DNA of 63,503 nt, the filler included, from Asterionella formosa (lineage: Eukaryota): the NCBI GenBank assembly GCA_002256025.1. It is 10 parts of 10 records of this genome, joined end to end, with 100 filler letters (N's around TTAATTAATTAA, not from the genome) between each part and the next. Parts side by side here need not be neighbours in the genome. Positions count along the whole stretch, not along the records: positions 6,373 to 12,640 come from NKIB01012761.1; 9 more parts are not named here. One strand, 5' to 3'. Below the pieces are notes generated by a model. The model was given only the letters and a program-made list of their open reading frames with translations, did not search any database and had not been told where the DNA came from. Below are positions 6,065-59,604 of the stretch, in pieces (position 1 is the first letter of the stretch; each line of letters opens with the position of its first letter). The position numbers and the translations under genes were made by a program.

Positions 6065-6272
6065 TGATAAGATGCTAGTATCTAAAGACGAATTGGCCTG
6101 TTAGTGCCCTGCTGTAATGGTAGGTCCAACAAGTTGTGACTTGGCCCGTTCCAGCAGTACTTTTTACTAGGTTAGTATGTATCTACGTAGATGGTACAAC
6201 CACGTTGTACCAGTACCCATCAAGTACTATGGATATCTGATTCATCAGTTGGTGCGGTAAGCGGTAAGTCAC
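6065..6272 (-). repeat. 5' LTR of Copia element 1 (truncated by gap)
   Basis: Near-identical to 984-1190. On the minus strand it is followed by the PBS-like GATTATGAGACCGA and the gag ATG at 6038. Confidence 0.9.
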
Positions 6273-6372
6273 NNNNNNNNNNNNNNNNNNNNNNNNNNNN
6301 NNNNNNNNNNNNNNNNTTAATTAATTAANNNNNNNNNNNNNNNNNNNNNNNNNNNNNNNNNNNNNNNNNNNN
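6273..6372. other. Artificial contig spacer (N-TTAATTAATTAA-N); also at 12641, 19007, 25369, 31730, 38087, 44442, 50797, 57151
   Basis: An identical 100-bp six-frame-stop linker recurs nine times. The contigs between them decrease in length: 6272, 6268, 6266, 6262, 6261, 6257, 6255, 6255, 6254, 6253. Confidence 0.98.
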
Positions 6373-6925
6373 ACTACAGAGAATCTAGGTCTTTCAATTC
6401 CAGGTAATGCAACTGCTACCAGATCGTTCTCAATGTAATCAAACGAGAGAGCAGAAACGCGTGTCCAGAGGACTCTTTGGATTTTTTGTTGATTTGAAAA
6501 TCCGCGCACCCGAAAATTGCAATAATTTACCAGTAAACAACAATCCGCAAAATTTCTTCCAGATGCATTGGGAAGCATGAGGGATGAAGCGGGAGCTGGG
6601 TCAAACTAATAGGGGGAAACACGTGATGATGAATGTCAATCATTCTGGGTGGGGTTTTCCTCTATTGCTTTCTGACTAATGTTTACGCGGTATATATTAT
6701 ATGCCGTATAATACCGGTATTACTCGTTCGATCACGGTGGAGGAGCGAAAGAGTACCGGTACGTAAGGACAAAGTACTACGAACGTAGACGAAAAATAAT
6801 CAAAACTCTCGGCGCAACCTTTTATGGCCATACATATAGTCGTAGGTTCGTAGCTATGTACCCGTATTCCCTATGTACCGGTGTAACACCTTCGACAATG
6901 CTCGCGATATGTACTTGTATAGAAC

Positions 6926-9900
6926 TGTTGAAGTATCTACCGGTAGTACTCTTGAGTAGTATATGTCTATACTTAACTCTCAGCTACCGGTAGCTATTTC
7001 TCGTGATCTACTTCTAGATCTTTAGTAAATGTCAGAAACTCACTTTCTGCTTTACTTTATTGTGAGCTTTCTACTAGTACTTAGAAAGAGCTCCTTCCTA
7101 AGATCCATTTTCGATCTTTCAACTTCTACTTCAATCATCTCATCATTGTCTTTACCAAAACAATTCTGTGGTCCCTGGGAGCCACATTTACTATAACACA
7201 TAGTTGGAGTATAATCATAGTTGCAGTCACTTTTGTGACTTGACTCAAATGATCCCTTCACTATTTGTCACTCTCCCTGATCTCTGGTCCAACAGTCCAG
7301 TGTACCGTTTGAGATATTAGATGCATGTAGATCATGGATTCTGGTTATGACATTCTTTGACAGAAGATCAGATAGATTCTTCTCCGTGTTGACATATTGA
7401 ACTCTTATGTCTCCACATTCAACTTTCTCACGTATAAAGTGATGTCTCACATCAATGTGTTTTGTTCGTCCTCCGACTTGCTTGTTCTTCGATAGGAATA
7501 TTGTGCCAGTATTATCTTCTGATATAATGCTTGGTGGTAGTTCAACAGTAGCAATTTCGTTTAAAAGATGTGCAGTGAACATTGTTTCCTTGGTCCATCT
7601 GACAGTGACACATATTCAGCCTCAGTGCTTGACAATGTCACAATTGCCTGCCCTTTTGATATCCAATTAACTAGTGCAGTACCGCCAATGGTTCCCAAAT
7701 AGGCACTCGTTGATTTTCTTGTGTCAGGATTATCACCAAAAGAGCTGTCAAAGACATCTTGTACACATAGTTCTTTTGGTGGTCTCAACTTCAATCTTCG
7801 ATTTTCGGGTTTAGCACAAATTACCCAAGTAGTCTTTCTACTGCGTTCCAGTGCTCATCACCTGGATTATCCAAATGTTGTGACGATTCTCGGCATGCAT
7901 TGGAACAAACAGGACCAATCTTTTTAACGTAGTATAGTAGCTTGCCTACCATAGATCGGTACACTTTATGCTTCACTGGATTCCCAGTTGAATTTCTCAG
8001 CGTAGTGCTGGGGAAAGCCGGAGTTGCTGCATCTTTTGGAAAATGTCCAAAGATATCTTTGAAATCGTCTTTCATACTACCTTGGACAAAACTTTCCATA
8101 CTACTCTCTAAGTAGCGTCCTGTAGAATCCTCTCCCCATTTGTACCGCACGCCCAGGTGTTTCTTCAATTGTCCAAGTTCTTTAATTGTGAAATATTTCT
8201 GTATCTCCTTCTTGAACACTCTAAATCGCTAGGCTTTCCGGCTACTGCGCAGTCGTCAACGTGTGAGGCAATTAGTAAGACTAATCTCCCATTCCGTTTC
8301 AAATAGAAAATACATGGGTCCACTTGACATTGAGTCAGACCAAATAATTTCAAAATTTCAACCAGTTTCTTAAAAACCTGCAAAGCTCACTGAAGTGTCC
8401 CATACATCGCTTTTTTGAGCAAGATGCATTAATTTTCGGTGTCGACTTTTGTTTCATAGCCAAGCTCTTCTATTCCTTCTGGCCAGCCAATATAGATTGC
8501 TTCGTCCATATCACCTTCTAGGAATGCCGCTTCCACATCAACAATTTCGCAAATCCATCGTTAGTTAACATCCTTGCTGTGATTATAGAGTGTGATTGCA
8601 AAAACTGTTCTTGTTGTTGTATCTGTTGCAACTGGGGCGAATGACTCTGTGAAGTCTACGCCAGGGATTTGTACATATCCCTTCACAATGTTGATACTTT
8701 CTCCCATAAGAGTCCTTGTGACTCATCAGAAAATTTAGCTTTCAACATTGCACTGACGCTTCTGTCTCTAATAGTCACAAATTTGCGTTCCACCATACCG
8801 TTTTGCTGTGGGGTGTGTAGAGCAGTAAATTTGATAGTGATATTAAGCCTGTCACACATTGAAGAAAGTCCCTTGATATTTTCCCCAGCATTGTCACATC
8901 GCAGGTACCAAATGATGTAGTTGGCATTGCGTAATTTAAGCAATAGTGGTTCCACTGTAGCCGCCATCTGCGACTTTTTCTTGACAAAGAAACTCCAGGA
9001 TTTTCCACTATATTCATCAACGACCAAAATCCAGTAAGTACTCCCGACAATACTAGACTTCTTGTAAGGGCCACTTATATCTGCACCTAAACACTCACCT
9101 GCCATAGTTGCTACTTTAGGTACAGCCTTTGATTTTGCTTTAGCCAAAGCACATCCCTCACATGGCTGTAGGGCTCCACTGGTCTCAATACCAATCAACT
9201 TCAATGTAGCACGCAGAGCTGCCTCGCTAGTGTGCCCGAATTTGTCATGTGCAACATTGATGTCCATACTTTTCTTAGTTGTAGGCTTAACAGGGTTGCC
9301 GGTCGTTGGTGCAGCTTCCTCGTTGTTGTCCTCTGTGGACAATGCTGTTTTGTTGCCGTGCTTTCTAGTACCATGCATATAGTAGAGCACACCATTGGCC
9401 TTGCTCTTGAAAGTTAGTCTGTCGTGCTCCCCTTCCTTGCGTAGATTCATCTTGTCCTTGAGAATACCAACCTCGAATCTCTCATTTCGCACAAACATAC
9501 CGACACTTAGTATATTCTTGTGGAAGGTAGGTGTATATAGGACCTTCTTCAGGAGTAGGACCTTCTGTGTAGCAGCATCAGTGAGGAGGATATCACCACG
9601 TTTGGTACATAAAATTTCCTCTCTATTGCCAACGATTACTCGAGTCTTGACTGTTTCGATATTTGTCATACCAACATCGCACGTAGTGATATGACTTGTA
9701 GCTCCTGTATCCGCTTACCATTCTTCAGTCTTGACATCATCACTCACTCCACAAAATTCGTTATTTTCGATTTTGTTTTTGAACTCATTGTCGCTCGTTG
9801 TCTTGATGAGTTTGATGCCTTCTTTCGCAGTTTCTTCGTCGTCATCGATCGTAATCGTCACCCCAACATACATTCCGGTTTCTTTGTCTTTGTCCTTTTC

Positions 9901-11139
9901 GTCTTTCTTATTTTTCTCAGGGCAATCTTTCGCAATGTGTCCAGCATACTTATTACAATTGAAACATTTGACTCCTTTGCCAACGGCTTCATCGTCTTTT
10001 GCTCGTTTCTTGTTCCCACCACCAGCAGTGTTCGCTTTTGATCGGCATTCCGCTGCCTTGTGTCCCTGCTTTCCACAGTTGCGACAGTTCCCTTTAAACT
10101 TTCCTCCGACAAACAAAGCCAATTCGTCTTCATTCTTGTCTGTTGTCTTGAACTTGCGCTTGTAGAACGCCCTGATCTTAGCCTTGATCTCCGTAAGCAT
10201 CACGTTCTTTACTCCTTCAACCATAGTAATGACTTCGCTGTACTATCCTGGAAGTTTGTCAATGATATGCGTGATAACTTCGGCGTCCTTTTTCTCGAAG
10301 TCGATATCAATCTGTATCATCCTGTTCCTGATGTTGTCTAACTTAATGAACCATTCATCAGGGTCTTGTTCCGTGTCCTTGAGGTTGCGTTGTTGAATTC
10401 TCCAGCAAGATGAATCAAATCTGATGCTTCGTTGGGCGCATACCTGTCATTAAGATTCTTCCATCCTAAGAAAGCATCGCCATCGATTAGGTCCTTCATC
10501 TTTGCATGGTTCACTAACCCAAAAGCGATTCCAGTACAGCTGAGGATTAAAAACTGGTAAGCCGATATTCCTCATAATTTTTCTACTCTTCGTCGTGCGT
10601 CGAAGTCAAATAGACCGCATCTGAGCATGGTTTCATGTCGTTGGCATAGGCATGGCGAAACCCCTTGCTTTTGGCCAGAGCAAGCGCCTTCACGCTCCAC
10701 TCATGTCAATGGTTTTCGTCTCCATCAAACTTGATGGTTCCGACTTTCTCTTCTGTTGTAGTCATGCTACTTATCTTTTGCTTTGTAGATACAAAGGTTC
10801 GTTTATACGTGTTGAAGTATCTAGTCCTCTTGAGTAGAATATGTCTATACTTAACTCTCAGCTAGCTATTTCTCATGATCTACTTCTAGATCTTTAGTAA
10901 ATGTCAGAAACTCACTTTCTGCTTAACTTTATTGTGAGCTTTCTACTACTTAGAAAAAGCTCCTTCCTAAGATCCATTTTTGATCTTTCAACTTCAACTT
11001 CAATCCTCTCGTCATCGTCTTTACCAAAACAATTCCGTGGTCCCTGGGAGCCACATTTACTATAACACATAGTTGGAGCATAATCATAGTTGCAGTCACT
11101 TTTGTGACTCGACTCAAACGATCCCTTCACTATTTGTCA
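6926..11139 (-). mobile_element. Copia LTR retrotransposon with both LTRs and 6-bp TSD; internally deleted and pseudogenised
   Basis: LTRs at 6926-7270 and 10810-11139 (TGTTG...TGTCA). TAGAAC flanks both sides (6920-6925, 11140-11145). PPT is AGGGAGAG. Gag starts at ATG 10765 and has two CCHC knuckles; protease DTGATSH is frameshifted; GAG-pre-integrase H..H..C..C and integrase DNAGE/NGMVER are present; RT has SHVDD; RNase H has TEAEY and RTKHIDVRHHF. The integrase C-terminus is joined directly to RT 'KGYVQIPGVDF' near 8680. Confidence 0.95.
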
Positions 11140-11570
11140 TAGAACCAGGTACCAGTTAAAAATGGTTTGCTTTGAGGCACTTAAGGTTGCGGCCCTCGGC
11201 TTGACCCTAGTTTGGAGAAAACGTCGCTAGGGTTGTAAAAACGGCATGGAACAGGGAGTTTGCTGCTATGAGTTCCCATGATTCGAGTGTCCATTTGAAT
11301 ATTTGAATTAAATAGGAGTCGGCGCCAGATAGACAGAGTTCCATTTTAAACAAAAAAAAAAGATATTTAAACGTTTATACTATATCTACGTTGCTGAATG
11401 TAGACATAATTTTGTTCCACGCCATAAACATATATAAATCAGGAGTATGCCTAAATGTATATTCATGATAATTTTTGTCCGTTTATATTGAATCTTTGTT
11501 ATTACTAATTTTACCTACCAAGTACCGGTACATTACATCTAATAAATTTAGTTCAAGTATGGCTGGCGTA

Positions 11571-12640
11571 ATTTTACAAGACCGGGAGGATACTTTGGCC
11601 GATCTGGAGCAGGAGGTGAGTAAATTCAATTCAACCAATTAGAATATGTGTAGTGACGCGGGAACTTACCCTGGAGTCTTTTCGGACAGAGAATTATTCA
11701 GCGACACATACCTACGCAAGACTCTAAGTCTACGAGGACGTTTTTGCACGTACTAATTCCGATTCCAATATTTTGGCGACTGTTGAAAAAACTGATCGTG
11801 TCGACTTTTTGGAAGAGGATTGCTCTACATCTACTGGGTTTCATGACGATTAAAATAGATAGCCGTGTACCCTATAACGTCAGGAGTTAACTTCTGGAGA
11901 GAAGTGGCAGTTATGTATCGTAGATATTTAGAAATGTGTTGATTGAGGTACATCATAAAAATATTTTGGGAAAAAACGGACCTCGCAATTTTTAAGGTTG
12001 CGGCCCCGCAGTTACACATAACGAGGTCTGTTTTTTTCCAAAATAATTTTATTATGTACTTCAATCCACACAGTACGAGCAACGAAATAAAATAGCTAAA
12101 GCTAAACTTAGCTTTCAACAATACGACCACTTTGCATATGCTTAGATACAGTCATGGGTCGACTTAGGGGTATGATCTAAATACAGATATGGTAAGGACC
12201 TCATTTCTGGAGAGAAGTGGCAGTTATCCCTCTTGGAATCGTAACTATCCAAAAAAATAGTCAAAAAAGGGGGCCATGAAGCTTTAAAAAAATCTACGAG
12301 GGATAACTGCCACTTCTCTCCAGAAGTTAACTCCTGACGTTATAGGGTACACGGCTATTTATGTCATTCTTCATGAAACCCCGTAGATGTAGAGCAATCC
12401 TCCTCCAAAAAGTCGACCCGATCGGCTTTTTCAACAGTCGTCAAAAGATTGGAATCAGAATTTGTACATGCAAAAAGTTCTCGTATACTTGGAGTCTTGC
12501 GTAGGTAGGTGTCGCTGAATAATTCTCAGTCCAAAAAGACTCCAGGGTAAGTTCCCGTGTCACTACACATATTCTGATTGGTTGAATTGAATTTATTCAC
12601 CTGCTTCAGATTCGCTGAAGTATCCCGGTCTTGTAGAATC
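11571..12640. repeat. Long imperfect inverted repeat (arms about 11571-11950 and 12265-12640), MITE/foldback-like
   Basis: For example, GTACCCTATAACGTCAGGAGTTAACTTCTGGAGAGAAGTGGCAGTTA (~11867-11913) is the reverse complement of ~12304-12350. Homology continues to the contig end. Confidence 0.85.
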
Positions 12641-21624: not shown

Positions 21625-22926
21625 GGAATCACTTGGTAATCATAAGATCGACAACGGAAATTAACACGACGTAAGCGTTCGTCAATCATAACTTGTCGAC
21701 GTTGATGTATCAACTGTAAATCTGTAATCAAAGGAATATTCAATATCATATCACGTTGAAAAACCCATGCGCCTGGTGAAATACATAATATACTATGAAT
21801 GGTAGTTCGAGTTGCATATGATGCAGTTGCAAAACATGTATCCACAATATTTTGGGCTTGAAATTCATTCATTGGAGGGTGGGCCTTTAACATAACTCGT
21901 AGACTAGCTATTACTGATGGATTGATGTAAACGTTCACAGATAGCATTTGCTTGTGGATTCTTGACTGTAGTAGTCACATCTTTAATTCCATTCAACACC
22001 AACATGTGTAAGAAAGGAGCACCAGTAAATTCACCTCCATTGTCATGTATACAACGTTCTGGACGGGGATATCTGGCTAACCAGTCATTTTCAAATTTCA
22101 TTGCAATATATTCTGATGTTTTGTTATTGATACATGAAATTTCTGCCAAATTGGTGACCGTATCAATACAAGTTAGAGCACGAAATTCAATTGCTTGAGT
22201 AGCCACTGTTATCTTCCATGGACCAATTAAATCTACTGCAACTTCTGACCATGGTAATAACAATGCATTCCTGGGTGGAAGTTCACCAAAACCAGTACCA
22301 GGTAATTTTGTACGTTGACATGCTTCACATACTCTTACAATATTTTCCACTCTTGCTTTTAATGTAGTGTGATAAAAATGTGTAGCAATTGTAGCATTTA
22401 ATCTTGTCATACCCACATGAGCTAACATCTGATGATACCAATTAATAATAGGATCCAATAATGATCTAGGAATAGCAATACGCCAAGTATCTCCTGGATT
22501 CTTCACAAAACATATTAAAAATATATAATGAAAATTGATAGAGGGAAATTTTAAAAGGATATGTTTGTTGATTGAGAATCAATTGTTTATCCAGCAATTG
22601 TCTATCATGTATTAAGCTATAATCCAGAGGATATTGAATATTGTCTGTCAAGATTGGATGATTAAGGAAACAGGTAAGCAAAGGCTCATCATCTAATTCA
22701 ATTGAAAAGGTAGAAGTGGATGTTGATGCTGGAGATTTCGGTCCAATATCATCCCCCAAAATACACTCAAGCCTCGGGAGGCGAGAGATCATGGAATCTG
22801 CAATAGCATTGTCAGTCCCTTTCACATAGGGAAAAGTAGGAAGATATTCTTCAATATAAAGTCTCCATCTAAGAACACGTTGAGTATGTAAAGTATTATA
22901 AATAAGATATCGATGATCAGTGTGAA
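21625..22926 (-). mobile_element. Ty3/Gypsy pol fragment (RNase H end, integrase), frameshifted
   Basis: VHTDHR...QRVLRWRLYIEEY...KGTDNAIADS; H2C2 zinc region (WYHQMLAHVG...CEACQ); VAVDLIGPW; IHDNGGEF; NPQANAICERLH. RNase H precedes integrase, which is the Gypsy order. Confidence 0.9.
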
Positions 22927-30752: not shown

Positions 30753-31297
30753 ACTAATAGAAGTGCAATCCAATTAATTCTCTTGTTGGAGCAAATATTT
30801 ATCTAAATAATCATAGGGAATGTCTAATTGCATCAGATTCAACATTTGGAAAATTAAATGACAATCAAGAACTTCACAAACTCTCTGGAATGAAGAAAAT
30901 TGCTTAGATGCTCAATGAATCTATTAGAAGCATTCCAGTAGCTAGCATATCTGCCTCTAGAGAATTATGAAAAAGAGGAACTAAATTAATGTAGAGAGAA
31001 GAAGCCTTGCGAAAAAAGTGTAGGCGGCAACACAGTCGCTCCATAAGCAACAGAAATCTATGAAAATGGCGCCTGGGGAGATTGCCCTACATCTAAGCCG
31101 CGTATTACGTGAAGTGACCATCACGTAAATAAGCCTAGTTGATTTTGAATGGATCACATGAATTAGTTGAATACATCAAAATGCTTACTTGAATATATCT
31201 ATATATTATCTGAATACATCACGTTCATTATTTGATCAGAGTATCATGCATGCATTCCTGATCATCACTATATTACGTGATCACCTTCACAAAATTA

Positions 31298-31376
31298 ATT
31301 GAAATACTTCACATTATTATTTGAAACTTCACATAATTATTTGAAATACTTCACATAATTATTTGAAATACTTCAA
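31298..31376. repeat. AT-rich minisatellite, ~23-bp unit TTGAAATACTTCACATAATTAT
   Basis: About 3.5 tandem copies are visible. Confidence 0.85.
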
Positions 31377-31829
31377 TTAATTCTGTAATTCAGTTCACAT
31401 TGCCTTAAATTTTTGTCCACGTAATTCTATAATATGGTTCACGTAATTTATTAAATTTTTTTACGTATTTTAAAAGTACTATCAAATAATGTTGATTACT
31501 AATTCAACAGCCGGTATTTCACATTACATGGGAAACAAATCTCGATATGCAATCAAACGAAGCAGTTCTTTCAGAATGGCATCTTCAGTCTTGATAAGGC
31601 AAGCATTATGAGAAGTCTGTAAGGACAATGCAAGACAAACAGAAGCCATGCATTCTGAATGAAAAAATCATTCATTCTTGAAGAGGCATTATTGCACGAA
31701 GTTGCAACATGAATGCATCACACACTGGCNNNNNNNNNNNNNNNNNNNNNNNNNNNNNNNNNNNNNNNNNNNNTTAATTAATTAANNNNNNNNNNNNNNN
31801 NNNNNNNNNNNNNNNNNNNNNNNNNNNNN

Positions 31830-44541: not shown

Positions 44542-45257
44542 GCATTCACTTTCTCAGCTGTAAACCCGTGTCTCCACCTAGCCTCACTACATCCATCCCT
44601 CCTCTTAACGGTGCTATTTACGTCCACTGTCAAATTCTTAAGGAGGTTGTATCAAGTGCTGCTGAGGCCGAATTAGCTGCTTTATTCCACAATGGCAAAG
44701 AGGCATATGCTATTCGCACCATTCTTGCTGAGCTTGGTCATCCCCAACCTTCTACCCGTATTGTCACCGATAATAGCACTGCCAGTGGCATCGCCAATGA
44801 TACTGTCCGACAAAAACGTTCCAAAGCTATGGATATGCGTTATTACTGGGTACGCGATCGGGTTCGCCAAGGCCAATTTCTTGTATACTGGAAAAAAGGT
44901 AGTTTGAATCGTGCTGATTATTTCACTAAACATCATCCCGCTTCCCATCATATGTTGATGCGCCCGCACTATCTCCATTGCCCTCCATCCCTCCCTAGTC
45001 CTCCTAACTATTATGCGTGCTTGGCTTCCGATGCTGATAGCATCTCCCTCCCCGCTCCTGTTCTTCTGCCTGCATCTGTTGGTGAGGGTGTGTTAATATC
45101 TGCATATGATGCTCCATACATGCGCCGTACGAACCATACCGGCGCAGCCACCAGATTAGGTACATGCGTGAGTGCTGACAACGATGTACTTGGAACAGCA
45201 ATAGAATAGTCATAATATTGTAGTTCACCTTTATTCACGATAAGGTTCCCCTCAACA
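44542..45257 (+). mobile_element. Copia 3' end: RNase H plus 3' LTR (45091-45257)
   Basis: SSAAEAELAALF...TDNSTA...KRSKAMDMRYYWVRDR...NRADYFTKHH. PPT GAGGGTG is followed by TGTTAA...TCAACA. The pol frame runs into the LTR (stop at 45209). Confidence 0.9.
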
Positions 45258-56235: not shown

Positions 56236-57288
56236 CAGAAAATGCATAAACCGTCAGTCAGGGGAGTTCGTGATCATTTCTGCAATTCGAAATTTTTATT
56301 TGCGTAAAGAACAAGCAGTCTATTGTCGAATGGCTTAACGTATGTCTATAGTAAGCTGTCAAATGCTGACCTTATAAAGATTCCATAGAAATATGAACCA
56401 GCCATGACAATTAGTATGTACATAAAACTCACTACAAAATTGACATAGAGGAATTTGTTGCATCTTGAAATGTTGTCATACCTTCTCCGAGAATACTGTC
56501 GCTCAGGTTTTCTCATCTATTTCCACAAAACATAGAAAGCCTTATCTAGTCAAAGTTATCAAGCTAATCATCGCGGACTCAAAACTGTCGCTACTTTGGT
56601 CATATCTTAAAAACTGAGCAAATGACGACAAAAAAACTTCCAGCGCCGATTTCAACTTTTTGTTGTCAATACTAGTGCAACAAATTTTATTATTGAACGA
56701 TAATCTTGTTTATGTTAGTCTTCATACACGTGCGAAATAGGAATTGTTCTTTGTCAATATTCGTGAAGATATTCAACTCCACAATTTCGTCATGGTCAAG
56801 ATGGAGTTGCTGTCTCATTGACCCCATCCCACAGGCAGCTGTACAAACACACATGGAAGTACTGCCTGATGGTATCTGGTACCAAGCATGTATATTATTT
56901 AACGCTATACATGCAGAATGTACAAAGTATATACGAGGTTTGTTGTATGTATGATGTGTTCCATGTCGAAAAGCTAAGTACATCTGATACATTATGCATC
57001 CGTTTTCTTGACAAAATGTACAGTACATCTAAGCCGCGAAATACGCCACTTTTCGAAATTTCGTCTACGTATGAGTGTTAATTATGTGGTACTTCACATG
57101 CATTAATGCCACTCTTCACGTAAAAAAGATTACTTTTAACGGTTTCATGTNNNNNNNNNNNNNNNNNNNNNNNNNNNNNNNNNNNNNNNNNNNNTTAATT
57201 AATTAANNNNNNNNNNNNNNNNNNNNNNNNNNNNNNNNNNNNNNNNNNNNTTTTTTTTCTCGCTTTCGCTGTATTCTTTGTGTCAAGA

Positions 57289-59604
57289 ATGGCACCGCCT
57301 TTAACTCCTTCGTGGCAGTCCAATCAGCTACTCGTCCCTTCGATAGTACTTGGCTTGTCATGCGGAGTCGGCTACTTTATCGCCCACTCTGGATCCAAGC
57401 GCGTCTCGTGGGAAAAGACGTCCAGAGTCCTTGCGCGAGAGATTGTTAATCCCACGATTCCCTGGTGGCTCTTGTTGTTTGGGCAACGCGCTGTCTTCCC
57501 ACTCACTGCCTGGTGGATATGGAATCAGATGGGAGAAGATGATGCAGGAGGGACTTATGGAAAGGATCCTGATTTAACCACTCCAGGGCCGCCGAAAGAT
57601 GCAACTCCCAAAAGTCGCAACGTCAAAATGGCCGTCGACGGAAGAAGCGCCTCACAGATGGACACGGTCAAAACGAAGAACTCGACTGGTGAATCTCGAC
57701 CAGTGCCAAATATGGATCTTTCGGTTCTGGAACAAATTGTTGTGCCGCCTGACTTGACGAAGAAGTCATCGACTGAGCCTCAGAGATATTTGGAGATGCT
57801 CGTTCACAATGTATCGCACAAAGACCTGGTGTTGAGCTTGGACGCTAGGGACAATGGTGAGTATTGCCTGTGTCGGCCTAGATTCTCAGCCTTTGATTTG
57901 TACTCCAGACGAATCCTGGCAGCGATACCAGATAATCCTGAAATTGTTTCATTTAGTCGGTACGAACGATCGGACGCTACACCTAGGTATTCCATTGTCA
58001 CCCCAAGACCAAGTCGACAGAAGAAAATTCCAGCTGGTCTCAAACTGCCTTTTGAAGACCAGCGATTGCATATTCCTTGCAACGAACTCGTTAATTTACG
58101 GGTGAGAGGCCGAGATGCTCCTCGTATCGAACGAGATGCTACCGCCACATCATCAAGGCTTCAGATCGATCATGTCTTCTTCCCCCTGCTGGCCACTCTA
58201 CTGCCTCGATGGAATCAACAAATGAATCAAAAATACGCGACCTCGACGCCTGATGTCAAAAAAGTTTTGATTCTGGTCTCTGGCGTAGGAACACCCCGAA
58301 ATTGGACTCACTCCATTTCCGGAAATTCAACGGAAGCGTGTGCCCAGCTCATGGAGAAATTCATTCAACTCCTACACCCCGAAATTACTATTGTCTTGAT
58401 TCATTCTCAAACAAATCTCTTTAGGTACGACGAGAACATCTTATTTGCCAAGCACGAGCTAGTGCCGCAGATTGATGCCTACAGAGATGCTCATGCCAAA
58501 AACCTACCATACCCAGATGAAATAGATCGATCGAATCTTTCATTTGAAGTGTACGAAGATTGGCCTTTTAGTCCAGACTGGAAGCAGTCCTTTCATATTA
58601 CCTTGAGTTTTGCTGACGGAACGCCTGCTCGTACACATGCCATTCAAACGTCATTGCGACCCTACAGGCCAGACTTTTTGCACTTTTGGCAGCTCCAGAC
58701 CTTTTGGCACGACACAAAAATTGTGGACGATGACATTGAAATGCATTCTTTTGAAGATATGGAGACTGTTCCTGCTATGGATTGTTCTGATGTGCTCGAC
58801 GACGAGACCAAGTCTGTAATTGTAGAAATGAATGCATTTCGACAAGAGTTCTTGGAATTGCTAGAAGGACGGAATGATGTACGTCAATTTTGGTTACGGA
58901 AAACCAATAAGCCTGTTCTGGCTGTACTGTTGGTCCAGCCGCCAAATAAGCCAGCCATCCTGTATCGTGGAACTAATATGGAAGTTAGTATGCCCACGGG
59001 GAGTTTGTGTGCCGAGCGCAATGTGATTGGAACTGCGTTGGCTAGCAATCCTGGTCTGAAACGAGAAGATTTGCGAATGGTTGCAGTATTGGCTGTGCCA
59101 CTACCGGACCCTGAGGAGCTGATATCAAGGCCTACCAATATCAGTCGGAATATGAGTTTTGCAAGCTATTCGAGCGTAGTGAATAACGAGGACGAAGAAT
59201 GGATAATTGGTGAAAATGACGAAGAATGCACGACGGAGCGACTCGCCAATGTGGTTACAGTCCAGAAATCACCTCCAGTGTATCCATCACTTGGCCAACA
59301 AGTTCCGGCCTTTCACTTGCCGGTTCCAGCAAGTGTTGAACCAACTCCTCCTGGAACTCCAATTCGGCGTATCCACTTATATCCACAAGCACGGGAGACA
59401 ACATCCAAACCAATCATGGGTGGAAGTCGTAAACAAAAGCGCACAGTTTTGGTCCATTCTGCAAAGGATCTAAATCCACTGAAACCCTGCGGTGCTTGCA
59501 ATGAGTGGCTCAAGAAGATTGCCGAGTCCAATCCCTACTTTAAGGTTGTGACTTTCACAGACGCGGGATGCTCTGGAGTCTATGTGTGTCCTTGCCAAGC
59601 GTAG
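57289..59604 (+). CDS. Large protein with C-terminal cytidine deaminase-like domain
   Basis: GTNMEVSMPTGSLCAERNVIG and PLKPCGACNEWL zinc motifs. Intact ORF of about 770 codons with a hydrophobic N-terminus. Confidence 0.85.
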   Translation: MAPPLTPSWQSNQLLVPSIVLGLSCGVGYFIAHSGSKRVSWEKTSRVLAREIVNPTIPWWLLLFGQRAVFPLTAWWIWNQMGEDDAGGTYGKDPDLTTPGPPKDATPKSRNVKMAVDGRSASQMDTVKTKNSTGESRPVPNMDLSVLEQIVVPPDLTKKSSTEPQRYLEMLVHNVSHKDLVLSLDARDNGEYCLCRPRFSAFDLYSRRILAAIPDNPEIVSFSRYERSDATPRYSIVTPRPSRQKKIPAGLKLPFEDQRLHIPCNELVNLRVRGRDAPRIERDATATSSRLQIDHVFFPLLATLLPRWNQQMNQKYATSTPDVKKVLILVSGVGTPRNWTHSISGNSTEACAQLMEKFIQLLHPEITIVLIHSQTNLFRYDENILFAKHELVPQIDAYRDAHAKNLPYPDEIDRSNLSFEVYEDWPFSPDWKQSFHITLSFADGTPARTHAIQTSLRPYRPDFLHFWQLQTFWHDTKIVDDDIEMHSFEDMETVPAMDCSDVLDDETKSVIVEMNAFRQEFLELLEGRNDVRQFWLRKTNKPVLAVLLVQPPNKPAILYRGTNMEVSMPTGSLCAERNVIGTALASNPGLKREDLRMVAVLAVPLPDPEELISRPTNISRNMSFASYSSVVNNEDEEWIIGENDEECTTERLANVVTVQKSPPVYPSLGQQVPAFHLPVPASVEPTPPGTPIRRIHLYPQARETTSKPIMGGSRKQKRTVLVHSAKDLNPLKPCGACNEWLKKIAESNPYFKVVTFTDAGCSGVYVCPCQA

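Follow-up and report, generated by a model that had tools for sequence, protein, structure and literature searches.

Short insertions at duplicated dinucleotides in the repeats of the diatom Asterionella formosa: likely excision scars of two DNA transposon families

The window analyzed here is a stretch of 63,503 nucleotides from the diatom Asterionella formosa (GCA_002256025.1), made of parts of ten records joined end to end. Positions 6926-11139 hold a Copia-type retrotransposon, with its left and right LTRs at 6926-7270 and 10810-11139, both on the minus strand. Identical 6 bp copies of TAGAAC lie beside both LTRs (6920-6925, read on the plus strand, and 11140-11145), indicating that the element is the result of a single insertion. 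Between the LTRs there are 14 substitutions and 15 gap columns, and the left one holds three derived insertions at sites where the right one has a plain TA. Their alignment confirmed the differences at TA described in the first-pass annotation, specifically TA-CCGG-TA at 6938-6945 and 6985-6992 (scars A and B) and TA-G-TA at 7075-7079 (scar C); the repeated CCGG insert, said there to occur twice within 50 bp, has a spacing of 47 bp. The polarity was established over 30 LTR loci, not all of them independent contigs, with 20, 22 and 22 covering the respective sites. The insert was present at two, two and one of them and missing at 18/20 (A), 20/22 (B) and 21/22 (C), which makes the three of them derived insertions. 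Both CCGG inserts were found again on a second contig (L002), which is without the G insert. The interior of the same element has two more, TG-G-TG at 7532-7536, a non-TA site of the same class as scar C that is missing in 5/5 loci, and TA-C-TA at 9051-9055, missing in six of eight loci while the remaining two have a different gap. Among the indels listed, the three extra bases of these two sites were omitted in the contigs of all four runs compared (assembled contigs of 4 of the 24 listed runs, covering 12 of 49 indel rows); for scars A-C these contigs speak neither for nor against the inserts.

Similar events appear elsewhere in the window. In the first Copia element, one LTR reads GCTA-G-TAT (6074-6081, with the TA-G-TA at 6076-6080) and the other one, near 995, GCTAT, as had been reported, two copies being compared. 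The TA-GC-TA at 21905-21910 lies in the integrase region of a Gypsy element and is missing in four of the five other copies; it coincides with the switch between two integrase frames. The same Gypsy copy carries AT-C-AT at 22788-22792, missing in both covering copies. All five indels of the first-pass annotation are present and the four that could be polarized are each a derived insertion. The window also includes one end of a Plavaka-type family (31090-31729, plus strand, CATCTAAGCCGCG...) and the opposite type of end from another copy (57026-57150, plus strand), both preceded by TA and cut by a contig end. Besides, the window has 26 occurrences of the word TACCGGTA where 0.44 would be expected, and the whole genome has 28,528, compared with 1,718 of its reversed form as control.

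The catalog of indels was drawn from repeats rather than random DNA, and the fetched sequence amounts to about 1% of the genome (760,670 bases). Of the 762 unique short indels, 281 were scars (1,621 of 3,403 when counted by pairs), at a density of about one per 2.4 kb and one per 29 substitutions. Our analysis indicates that they come from two processes and not one, although in each class no pair is duplicated more often than TA. The CCGG insert was located between TAs in 14/14 cases and nowhere else, and the ten cases that could be polarized were all insertions. The second class, XY-G/C-XY and XY-GC-XY, makes up 267 of the 762 and occurs at nine dinucleotide types, with TA at 52 of 166 assignable 3-nt events and 18 of 76 assignable 4-nt events. 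When the flanking repeat was of exactly 2 bp, the middle base was G or C in 89/90 of the 3-nt indels, a count that omits the 103 of 192 with a repeat of at least 2 bp that are also plain tandem duplications, and the 4-nt indels had GC in 26/32 and CG in 0/32. Where polarizable, this class gave 167 insertions and 20 deletions, versus 124 and 140 among the remaining short indels. Whether the middle is G or C is independent of the neighboring bases, the ratio of G/C to GC shows no difference between TA and non-TA sites (p 0.28), and G is favored at +1. Rarer forms were XY-CC-XY (three events) and XY-GCC-XY (two). A G templated by the flank (palindrome or P-nucleotide) was rejected, G and C being equally frequent for every neighbor, and so was a 3-bp duplication plus one base, since every such 4-nt case can be read again as XY-GC-XY. 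TA-CCWGG-TA (73 against 1.8) is not explained by a model of two families. As its source we considered an 88-bp MITE, whose flanks were a direct CWG repeat in six of 13 listed copies, inverted in two and unclear in five, a pattern that makes insertion into CCWGG more likely than scar formation.

The first-pass annotation had predicted a family with CC...GG ends that duplicates TA, and such a family does exist. DDE_1 (PF03184) gave 93 matches (the search for the Tc1-type DDE_3 gave zero), and five full pogo-type copies run from CCGTA to TACGG between two TAs (L051, L056, L140, L155 and L163). L051 and L056 contain PF03184 above the cut-off and have terminal inverted repeats of 33-37 bp, L056 with an open frame of 433 aa; one pogo-type family has ten copies that are about 99-100% alike. 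The filled/empty pair L155/L061 has the TA duplicated around the element, and a scan for such pairs reduced 72 candidates to one clean inverted-repeat element, again a pogo. The CCGG, CCG and CGG middles fit the terminal bases CCG... and ...CGG with both copies of TA retained. In a 200-kb sample, TACCGTA and TACGGTA appeared 42 times versus 14 expected, element ends not being involved, and TACCTA and TAGGTA 55 versus 79, favoring overhangs of 3 nt rather than 2. The middle CCGG would be readable from CCG overhangs annealed through CG, and TA-CCGG-TA was very probably made by pogo-type elements. A pogo locus with filled, empty and CCGG states was not found among the fetched loci, and the process was therefore not "seen directly" as had been claimed; neither is the undescribed TA-directed cut-and-repair system, proposed as an alternative, needed.

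For the second class the best candidate is the Plavaka-type family, with ends CATCT...AGATG (602 exact ends versus one in the control). Eleven of the twelve copies with both ends read had matching 2-bp duplications (TA four times, AT twice, and GA, TG, CA, AA and TT), and empty sites bear out this duplication. The dinucleotides enriched among its targets tend to be those enriched among the scars (rho 0.87 and 0.65); with TA excluded, the correlation with the GC scars was not significant (rho 0.52, p 0.15). A C at -1 is found in targets and scars alike (0.35 and 0.38). Nine of 71 Plavaka-type ends abut a scar, versus 3.5 expected (p 0.01), and two repeat sites are occupied by the element in one copy while a different copy carries a scar at that TA (L002/L024 versus L014/L015, and L226 versus L106). 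As for the transposase, a protein encoded by L307, a contig with a Plavaka-type end, is 47% identical over 399 columns (the L307 frames match at 47-54%) to P0001, which matches PF18759 Plavaka with an E value of 4.9e-16. The frames of L307 have no Pfam match of their own (0/8 proteins), and the fetched loci of this genome provided a C-terminal fragment of the transposase only (L130). Read by eye, the L307 frame contains CRDC and stops before the H(3)H stretch seen in P0001. The search for Transposase_21 (CACTA) gave zero matches and carries no information, its control search being blank too. Plavaka-type elements are the probable makers of the XY-G/C-XY and XY-GC-XY scars. At a single TA site such as scar C (7075-7079) the origin may be Plavaka-type or pogo.

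We consider it rather likely that these indels are heritable scars left by the excision of two cut-and-paste families of DNA transposons. The pogo-type elements insert at TA, duplicate it and upon excision would leave 3-nt CCG overhangs on each flank; if these pair by their terminal CG and one base is filled in per side, TA-CCGG-TA would result, and if they pair in full, with C:C mismatched in the center, TA-CCG-TA or TA-CGG-TA. The Plavaka-type elements, of the CMCT clade and with C...G ends, make 2-bp duplications and have a loose preference for C-[T/A][A/T]-G sites. With such ends simple overhangs predict CG, but GC is what is seen, and from this we infer that the terminal C is flipped by a hairpin on the flank. 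Excision would pass through one hairpin per flank, the first nick falling one base within the element so that its terminal C remains in the loop. Opening the loop 5' and filling in would leave a G following the left duplicate and a C preceding the right duplicate, hence XY-GC-XY, and retention of one side alone would give XY-G-XY or XY-C-XY. This flipped-base geometry is absent from the literature consulted. That the cycles of both families, the Plavaka-type one with its own-end nick and hairpin, yield about half of the short indels in repeats is a proposal that we put forward tentatively.

The strongest rival, unlikely in our estimate, keeps pogo for TA-CCGG-TA and ascribes XY-G/C/GC-XY to another transposon, one that ends in G...C, duplicates 2 bp and leaves 1-nt overhangs. 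Such an element would yield G, C and GC without any extra step, as a simple analogue of Tc1-type footprints, and it could sit outside the 1% that was fetched; the Plavaka-type family, moreover, over-uses TA compared with the scars (34/71 ends versus 18/76 GC scars, p 0.003, and 52/166 G/C scars, p 0.018). However, no G...C-ended 2-bp family came up when the fetched sequence was scanned for filled/empty pairs, for inverted repeats and for the boundaries of repeats, the G-ended families detected duplicate 3 bp (TNA, AGT) or TTAA, and a high-copy family with 2-bp duplications and a similar target bias is already resident.

Somewhat less probable still is that the second class reflects host repair of 2-nt staggered breaks of the Spo11 or topoisomerase VI type, with an untemplated G added at one or both ends after fill-in. 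The genome has two TP6A_N genes, and the XY-CC-XY and XY-GCC-XY events would suit repeated addition of G. But plain 2-bp duplications amount to 17 events (with 2-3 bp repeats and mixed polarity) versus 267 scars, so that the addition would be nearly obligatory, for which we know of no precedent, and the scars beside Plavaka ends would be left unaccounted for. SPO11 and Top6 do cleave with 2-nt overhangs, and in yeast the bases that Spo11 favors relative to the dyad are C at -2 and A at -4 (PMC11922745 and PMC13040014), positions at which the scars have C at 0.38 and A at 0.35. Nevertheless, in these accounts the yeast enzyme is nearly indifferent to the dinucleotide in the center, and the SPO11 of mouse favors AT, with G at -3, whereas the scars favor TA.

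The first-pass annotation had treated all its indels as TA-directed, made by one family with CC...GG ends or by the undescribed system; the single-family reading stands for TA-CCGG-TA and not for the G and GC inserts as a class. TA is indeed the commonest pair, and TA-C-TA and TA-G-TA could be trimmed CCG/CGG overhangs, a possible origin for some lone TA-G-TA such as that at 7075. The non-TA events (114/166 G/C and 58/76 GC) largely refute it as a general source; the G/C to GC ratio, which does not differ between the two kinds of site, and the absence of GC from pogo ends also speak against it, and it is very improbable. An origin of the differences in deletion at microhomologies, in slippage of the polymerase or in faulty assembly is scarcely credible, for although many 3-nt events double as tandem duplications and the long form is in the majority at 20 of 187 polarizable scars, it is the minority at the three LTR sites, the middles of the non-tandem events are G or C in 89/90 and GC in 26/32, a second contig has both CCGG inserts as well and the other short indels lack the bias to insertions.

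Excision footprints are known from single-element assays; here the scars appear to be a leading natural source of small insertions. If pogo and Plavaka do supply about half of the short repeat indels, excision scars are a main class of mutation and a readable record of the chemistry and target choice of each family. If the link to Plavaka holds, this would be a first testable statement on how DNA is cut by a little-studied branch of the CACTA/Transib/RAG clade. LTR dating, indel-based distances and "promoter motifs" like TACCGGTA in diatoms may reflect transposon scars, and the 3-base ones are able to add single codons. Among the papers listed for TACCGGTA, none was about footprints by title or abstract, and the literature reached, mostly outside subscription papers, described neither such scars in diatoms nor footprints of Plavaka elements.

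Among the known systems, the footprints of Tc1/mariner elements (Sleeping Beauty, mariner, Stowaway) are the most similar to the TA-CCGG-TA scars, with TA on both sides and a middle taken from the element termini; in the parts consulted of PMC7827188 and PMC4561436 they arise from 3-nt 3' overhangs repaired by end joining, and the pogo element Passer leaves 0-4 bp (PMC9976928, likewise in part). The canonical Tc1/mariner footprint is of 3 nt, whereas here the 4-nt CCGG predominates, which we read as 2-bp annealing of CCG overhangs, and unlike those footprints the scars are fixed at the density given above through a natural genome. PIF/Harbinger elements, abundant and young in this genome, also have G...C ends, but as far as the consulted text of PMC4561436 goes they make a 3-bp TNA duplication and excise precisely; the scars have 2-bp duplications without TNA context, which discards these elements as their source, and the Harbinger families found here had 3-bp duplications wherever both ends were read (150 of 423 candidates scored; 30 loci and 8 stretches). 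The CATCT..AGATG family has the 5'-CA..TG-3' ends and a duplication within the 2-5 bp of the CMCT clade (EnSpm/CACTA, Mirage, Chapaev, Transib, Plavaka). It shares with PlavakaB the CAT...ATG ends, the varied 2-bp duplication and, judging from a homologue, perhaps the Plavaka-type transposase. According to the portion of PMC12730594 available, which describes no excision footprint for it, PlavakaB elements end in CATCA..TGATG, duplicate 2-3 bp and are grouped with Transib and RAG1. The fifth base is different, and the family is thus Plavaka-type and PlavakaB-like rather than a member of PlavakaB. The host here is a diatom, whereas the described Plavaka families are fungal, and red algal in what was accessible of bioRxiv 2025.02.11.637652. 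RAG works through hairpins (PMC7827188, in part), and in hAT (Ac/Ds, Hermes) and RAG the consulted sections of PMC2921059, PMC4561436 and PMC7827188 describe a flank hairpin that is opened and filled to leave an inverted base at the joint, as proposed here for the Plavaka-type family. In those systems, Ac/Ds included, the inverted bases come from the flanking DNA and vary by site, whereas the bases inserted here are not complementary to the flank and are always G or C, so that a hairpin route requires the first nick to fall one base inside the element.

The indels that the first-pass annotation had described are real, and those at 6938, 6985, 7075, 6076 and 21905 have all been confirmed. Three of them belong to a Copia-type element whose gag and pol domains are enclosed by LTRs at 6926-7270 and 10810-11139. 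The same six bases flank the pair (6920-6925 and 11140-11145), a target duplication of 6 bp; in Copia elements 5 bp is the commoner length. Aligned with each other, the two LTRs show 14 substitutions and three gaps, the latter due to TA-CCGG-TA inserts at 6938 and 6985 and a TA-G-TA insert at 7075, all in the left LTR. Over 30 loci of the LTR family the inserts were present in only 2 of 20, 2 of 22 and 1 of 22 of the loci showing each site, respectively. They are therefore derived, that is, insertions and not deletions. A second contig (L002) had both CCGG inserts and lacked the G, so that either the G is younger or the L002 copy is recombinant. The TA-GC-TA at 21905 was absent from four of five other copies, and no polarity was assigned to the insert at 6076. 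At 6845, 80 bp before the LTR, the contigs of three other runs diverge into one common other sequence, and the Copia insertion may be absent from the populations behind them. For the 3' end of another Copia family (44542-45257), at least 34 other copies exist, with 98-100% identity. A repeat at 11161-12640, possibly Kolobok-like, has GGTTGC ends adjoining TTAA and long internal inverted repeats; in the contigs of four runs, its summed depth exceeded the depth of the unique flank roughly a thousandfold.

We aligned the window and 217 loci, a set that is repeat-rich by construction, all against all, and catalogued the clean indels no longer than 12 bases. There were 762 unique events (859 in a looser first pass), and sizes from one to six bases accounted for 231, 68, 218, 117, 25 and 39 of them, three- and four-base indels each being commoner than two-base ones. 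With XY as any dinucleotide, the pattern XY-G-XY or XY-C-XY was matched by 191 three-base events, XY-GC-XY by 76 four-base events and TA-CCGG-TA by 14 six-base events. When exactly two bases of flanking repeat were required, which leaves out tandem duplications, 89 of the 90 three-base events had G or C in the middle, and 26 of the 32 four-base events had GC, CG appearing in none. Where polarity could be scored (at least four copies), the G/C/GC scars were 167 insertions vs 20 deletions and CCGG 10 insertions and no deletion, compared with 124 vs 140 for other indels of 1-4 bases. Later copies outside the catalogue gave 14 G/C and six GC scars among 54 indels. Scars amounted to one per 29 substitutions, counted over aligned pairs that are mutually dependent. 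CCGG was found between TAs only, whereas G, C and GC occurred at nine dinucleotide types, TA being the commonest. The footprint reading of the first-pass annotation was right in kind, but its one process becomes two classes of scar.

The CCGG class is the expected footprint of pogo-type elements, at an unusual density, and very probably such elements made it. In the 68.4 Mb assembly (15,436 contigs) DDE_1 had 93 matches and DDE_3 none. The search for TA-flanked elements with CC/GG ends yielded two families with CCGTA...TACGG ends, while a third has a CAGT end after TA. Ten copies within one of these families were about 99-100% alike, and the TA duplication was visible in one filled/empty pair; at no locus did we find the filled and the CCGG state together. 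According to PMC7827188, the footprints of Sleeping Beauty and mariner arise from repair of the 3-nt overhangs that these elements leave. CCG overhangs, one per flank, would give CCGG by pairing through CG, and CCG or CGG if fully paired with a mismatch. The word counts of the 200-kb sample fit this model, with an excess of TACCGTA and TACGGTA (42 vs 14 expected, none at element ends) and a deficit of TACCTA and TAGGTA (55 vs 79). The window had 26 occurrences of TACCGGTA itself (0.44 expected), the sample 76 (1.6 expected) and the whole genome 28,528, vs 1,718 for the reversed word. TACTGGTA and TACCAGTA (56 vs 7.5 expected) would be the expected products of CpG decay of the scar. TA-CC(A/T)GG-TA was also in excess in the sample (73 vs 1.8), forming tandem piles (L120-L139; in the window, e.g., 11146-11153). 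We found no element with ends matching it, and our first idea on its origin failed. Loci L028:2077-2165, L114:178-265, L164:1146-1233 and L173:4972-5059 are copies of an 88-bp inverted-repeat element that is bounded by CWG on each side and frequently sits inside TACCWGGTA words. The window contains artificial linkers (44 N, TTAATTAATTAA, 44 N) between its ten separate contigs, at 6273-6372 and eight similar places, which inflate its TTAATTAA counts. It also holds a long open frame (57253-59601, plus strand) with an LmjF365940-type deaminase domain (PF14421, E 1e-62). One of the proteins encoded in the window has a largely Bacillariophyta cluster as its nearest match, and runs from fresh water and algae contain the DNA; the genome is therefore probably that of a freshwater diatom.

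For the G/C/GC class the data point to a specific candidate source with an unusual putative cut geometry, and we favor, with some reserve, a Plavaka-type family as its maker. A boundary scan detected ends that read CATCTAAGCCGCG and are flanked by two bases of varying sequence; exact ends of this kind number 602. Both ends were obtained for 12 of 16 copies sought, and 11 of the 12 had a matching 2-bp duplication (seven different sequences), confirmed by empty sites. Among 71 distinct ends, TA was the duplicated pair at 34, CA/TG at 16, AA/TT at 10, AT at 6 and others at 5; the fraction having C at -1 was 0.35. Dinucleotide enrichment at ends and scars was correlated (rho 0.87 for three-base and 0.65 for four-base scars), and a scar adjoined 9 of the 71 ends vs 3.5 expected (p 0.01). 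Two repeat sites, one inside the LTR family of 6926-7270, had the element in one copy and a scar at the same TA in another. The 3-kb copies lack a long frame. These non-autonomous copies carry decayed frames (L225:1844-2035, minus strand), presumably resembling part of a captured leucine-rich-repeat gene. The same end occurs in L307, a metagenome contig that shares 268 identical bases with locus L086; the L307 frames had no Pfam match, and the protein encoded there is related to P0001, which is a PF18759 Plavaka. The L307 record is labelled marine, yet the identical end is that of freshwater genome copies. We found no report in the open-access literature of scars linked to Plavaka.

The share of TA was higher in the Plavaka-type ends than in the scars (p 0.003 and 0.018), and therefore further families, or some different cause, may also be involved. 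A host break-repair route of Spo11/Top6A type seems improbable: the genome has two such genes, and the scars share C at -2 and A at -4 with yeast Spo11 as described in PMC11922745, but plain 2-bp duplications are rare. Harbinger families were rejected as a source of G, C or GC, their duplications being of 3 bp, and PMC4561436 describes their excision as precise. One Harbinger-type family (L189-L209) is probably very young: its transposase matches, about 40 in all, score identically and are uninterrupted, and it has GGGTCG ends flanked by TNA. Another Harbinger-type element (L213:312-3396) has GGGCGCGC ends and an AGT duplication rather than the usual TWA.

Returning to the Plavaka-type source, simple overhangs from C...G ends would give C, G or CG. 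A flank hairpin with the first nick one base inside the element would hold the terminal C in the loop. Were the loop opened on its 5' side, the bottom strand would keep a C overhang, and fill-in with G would produce XY-G at the left and C-XY at the right. If it were opened on the opposite side, two 3' C overhangs would remain, whose mismatched join would be resolved to C or G. Such a hairpin would account for G, C, GC and the missing CG. PlavakaB, as described in PMC12730594, has CATCA..TGATG ends and 2-3 bp duplications and falls in the same clade as Transib and RAG1. The flank hairpin step is modelled on RAG and hAT, the nick inside the element being the addition of the present proposal.
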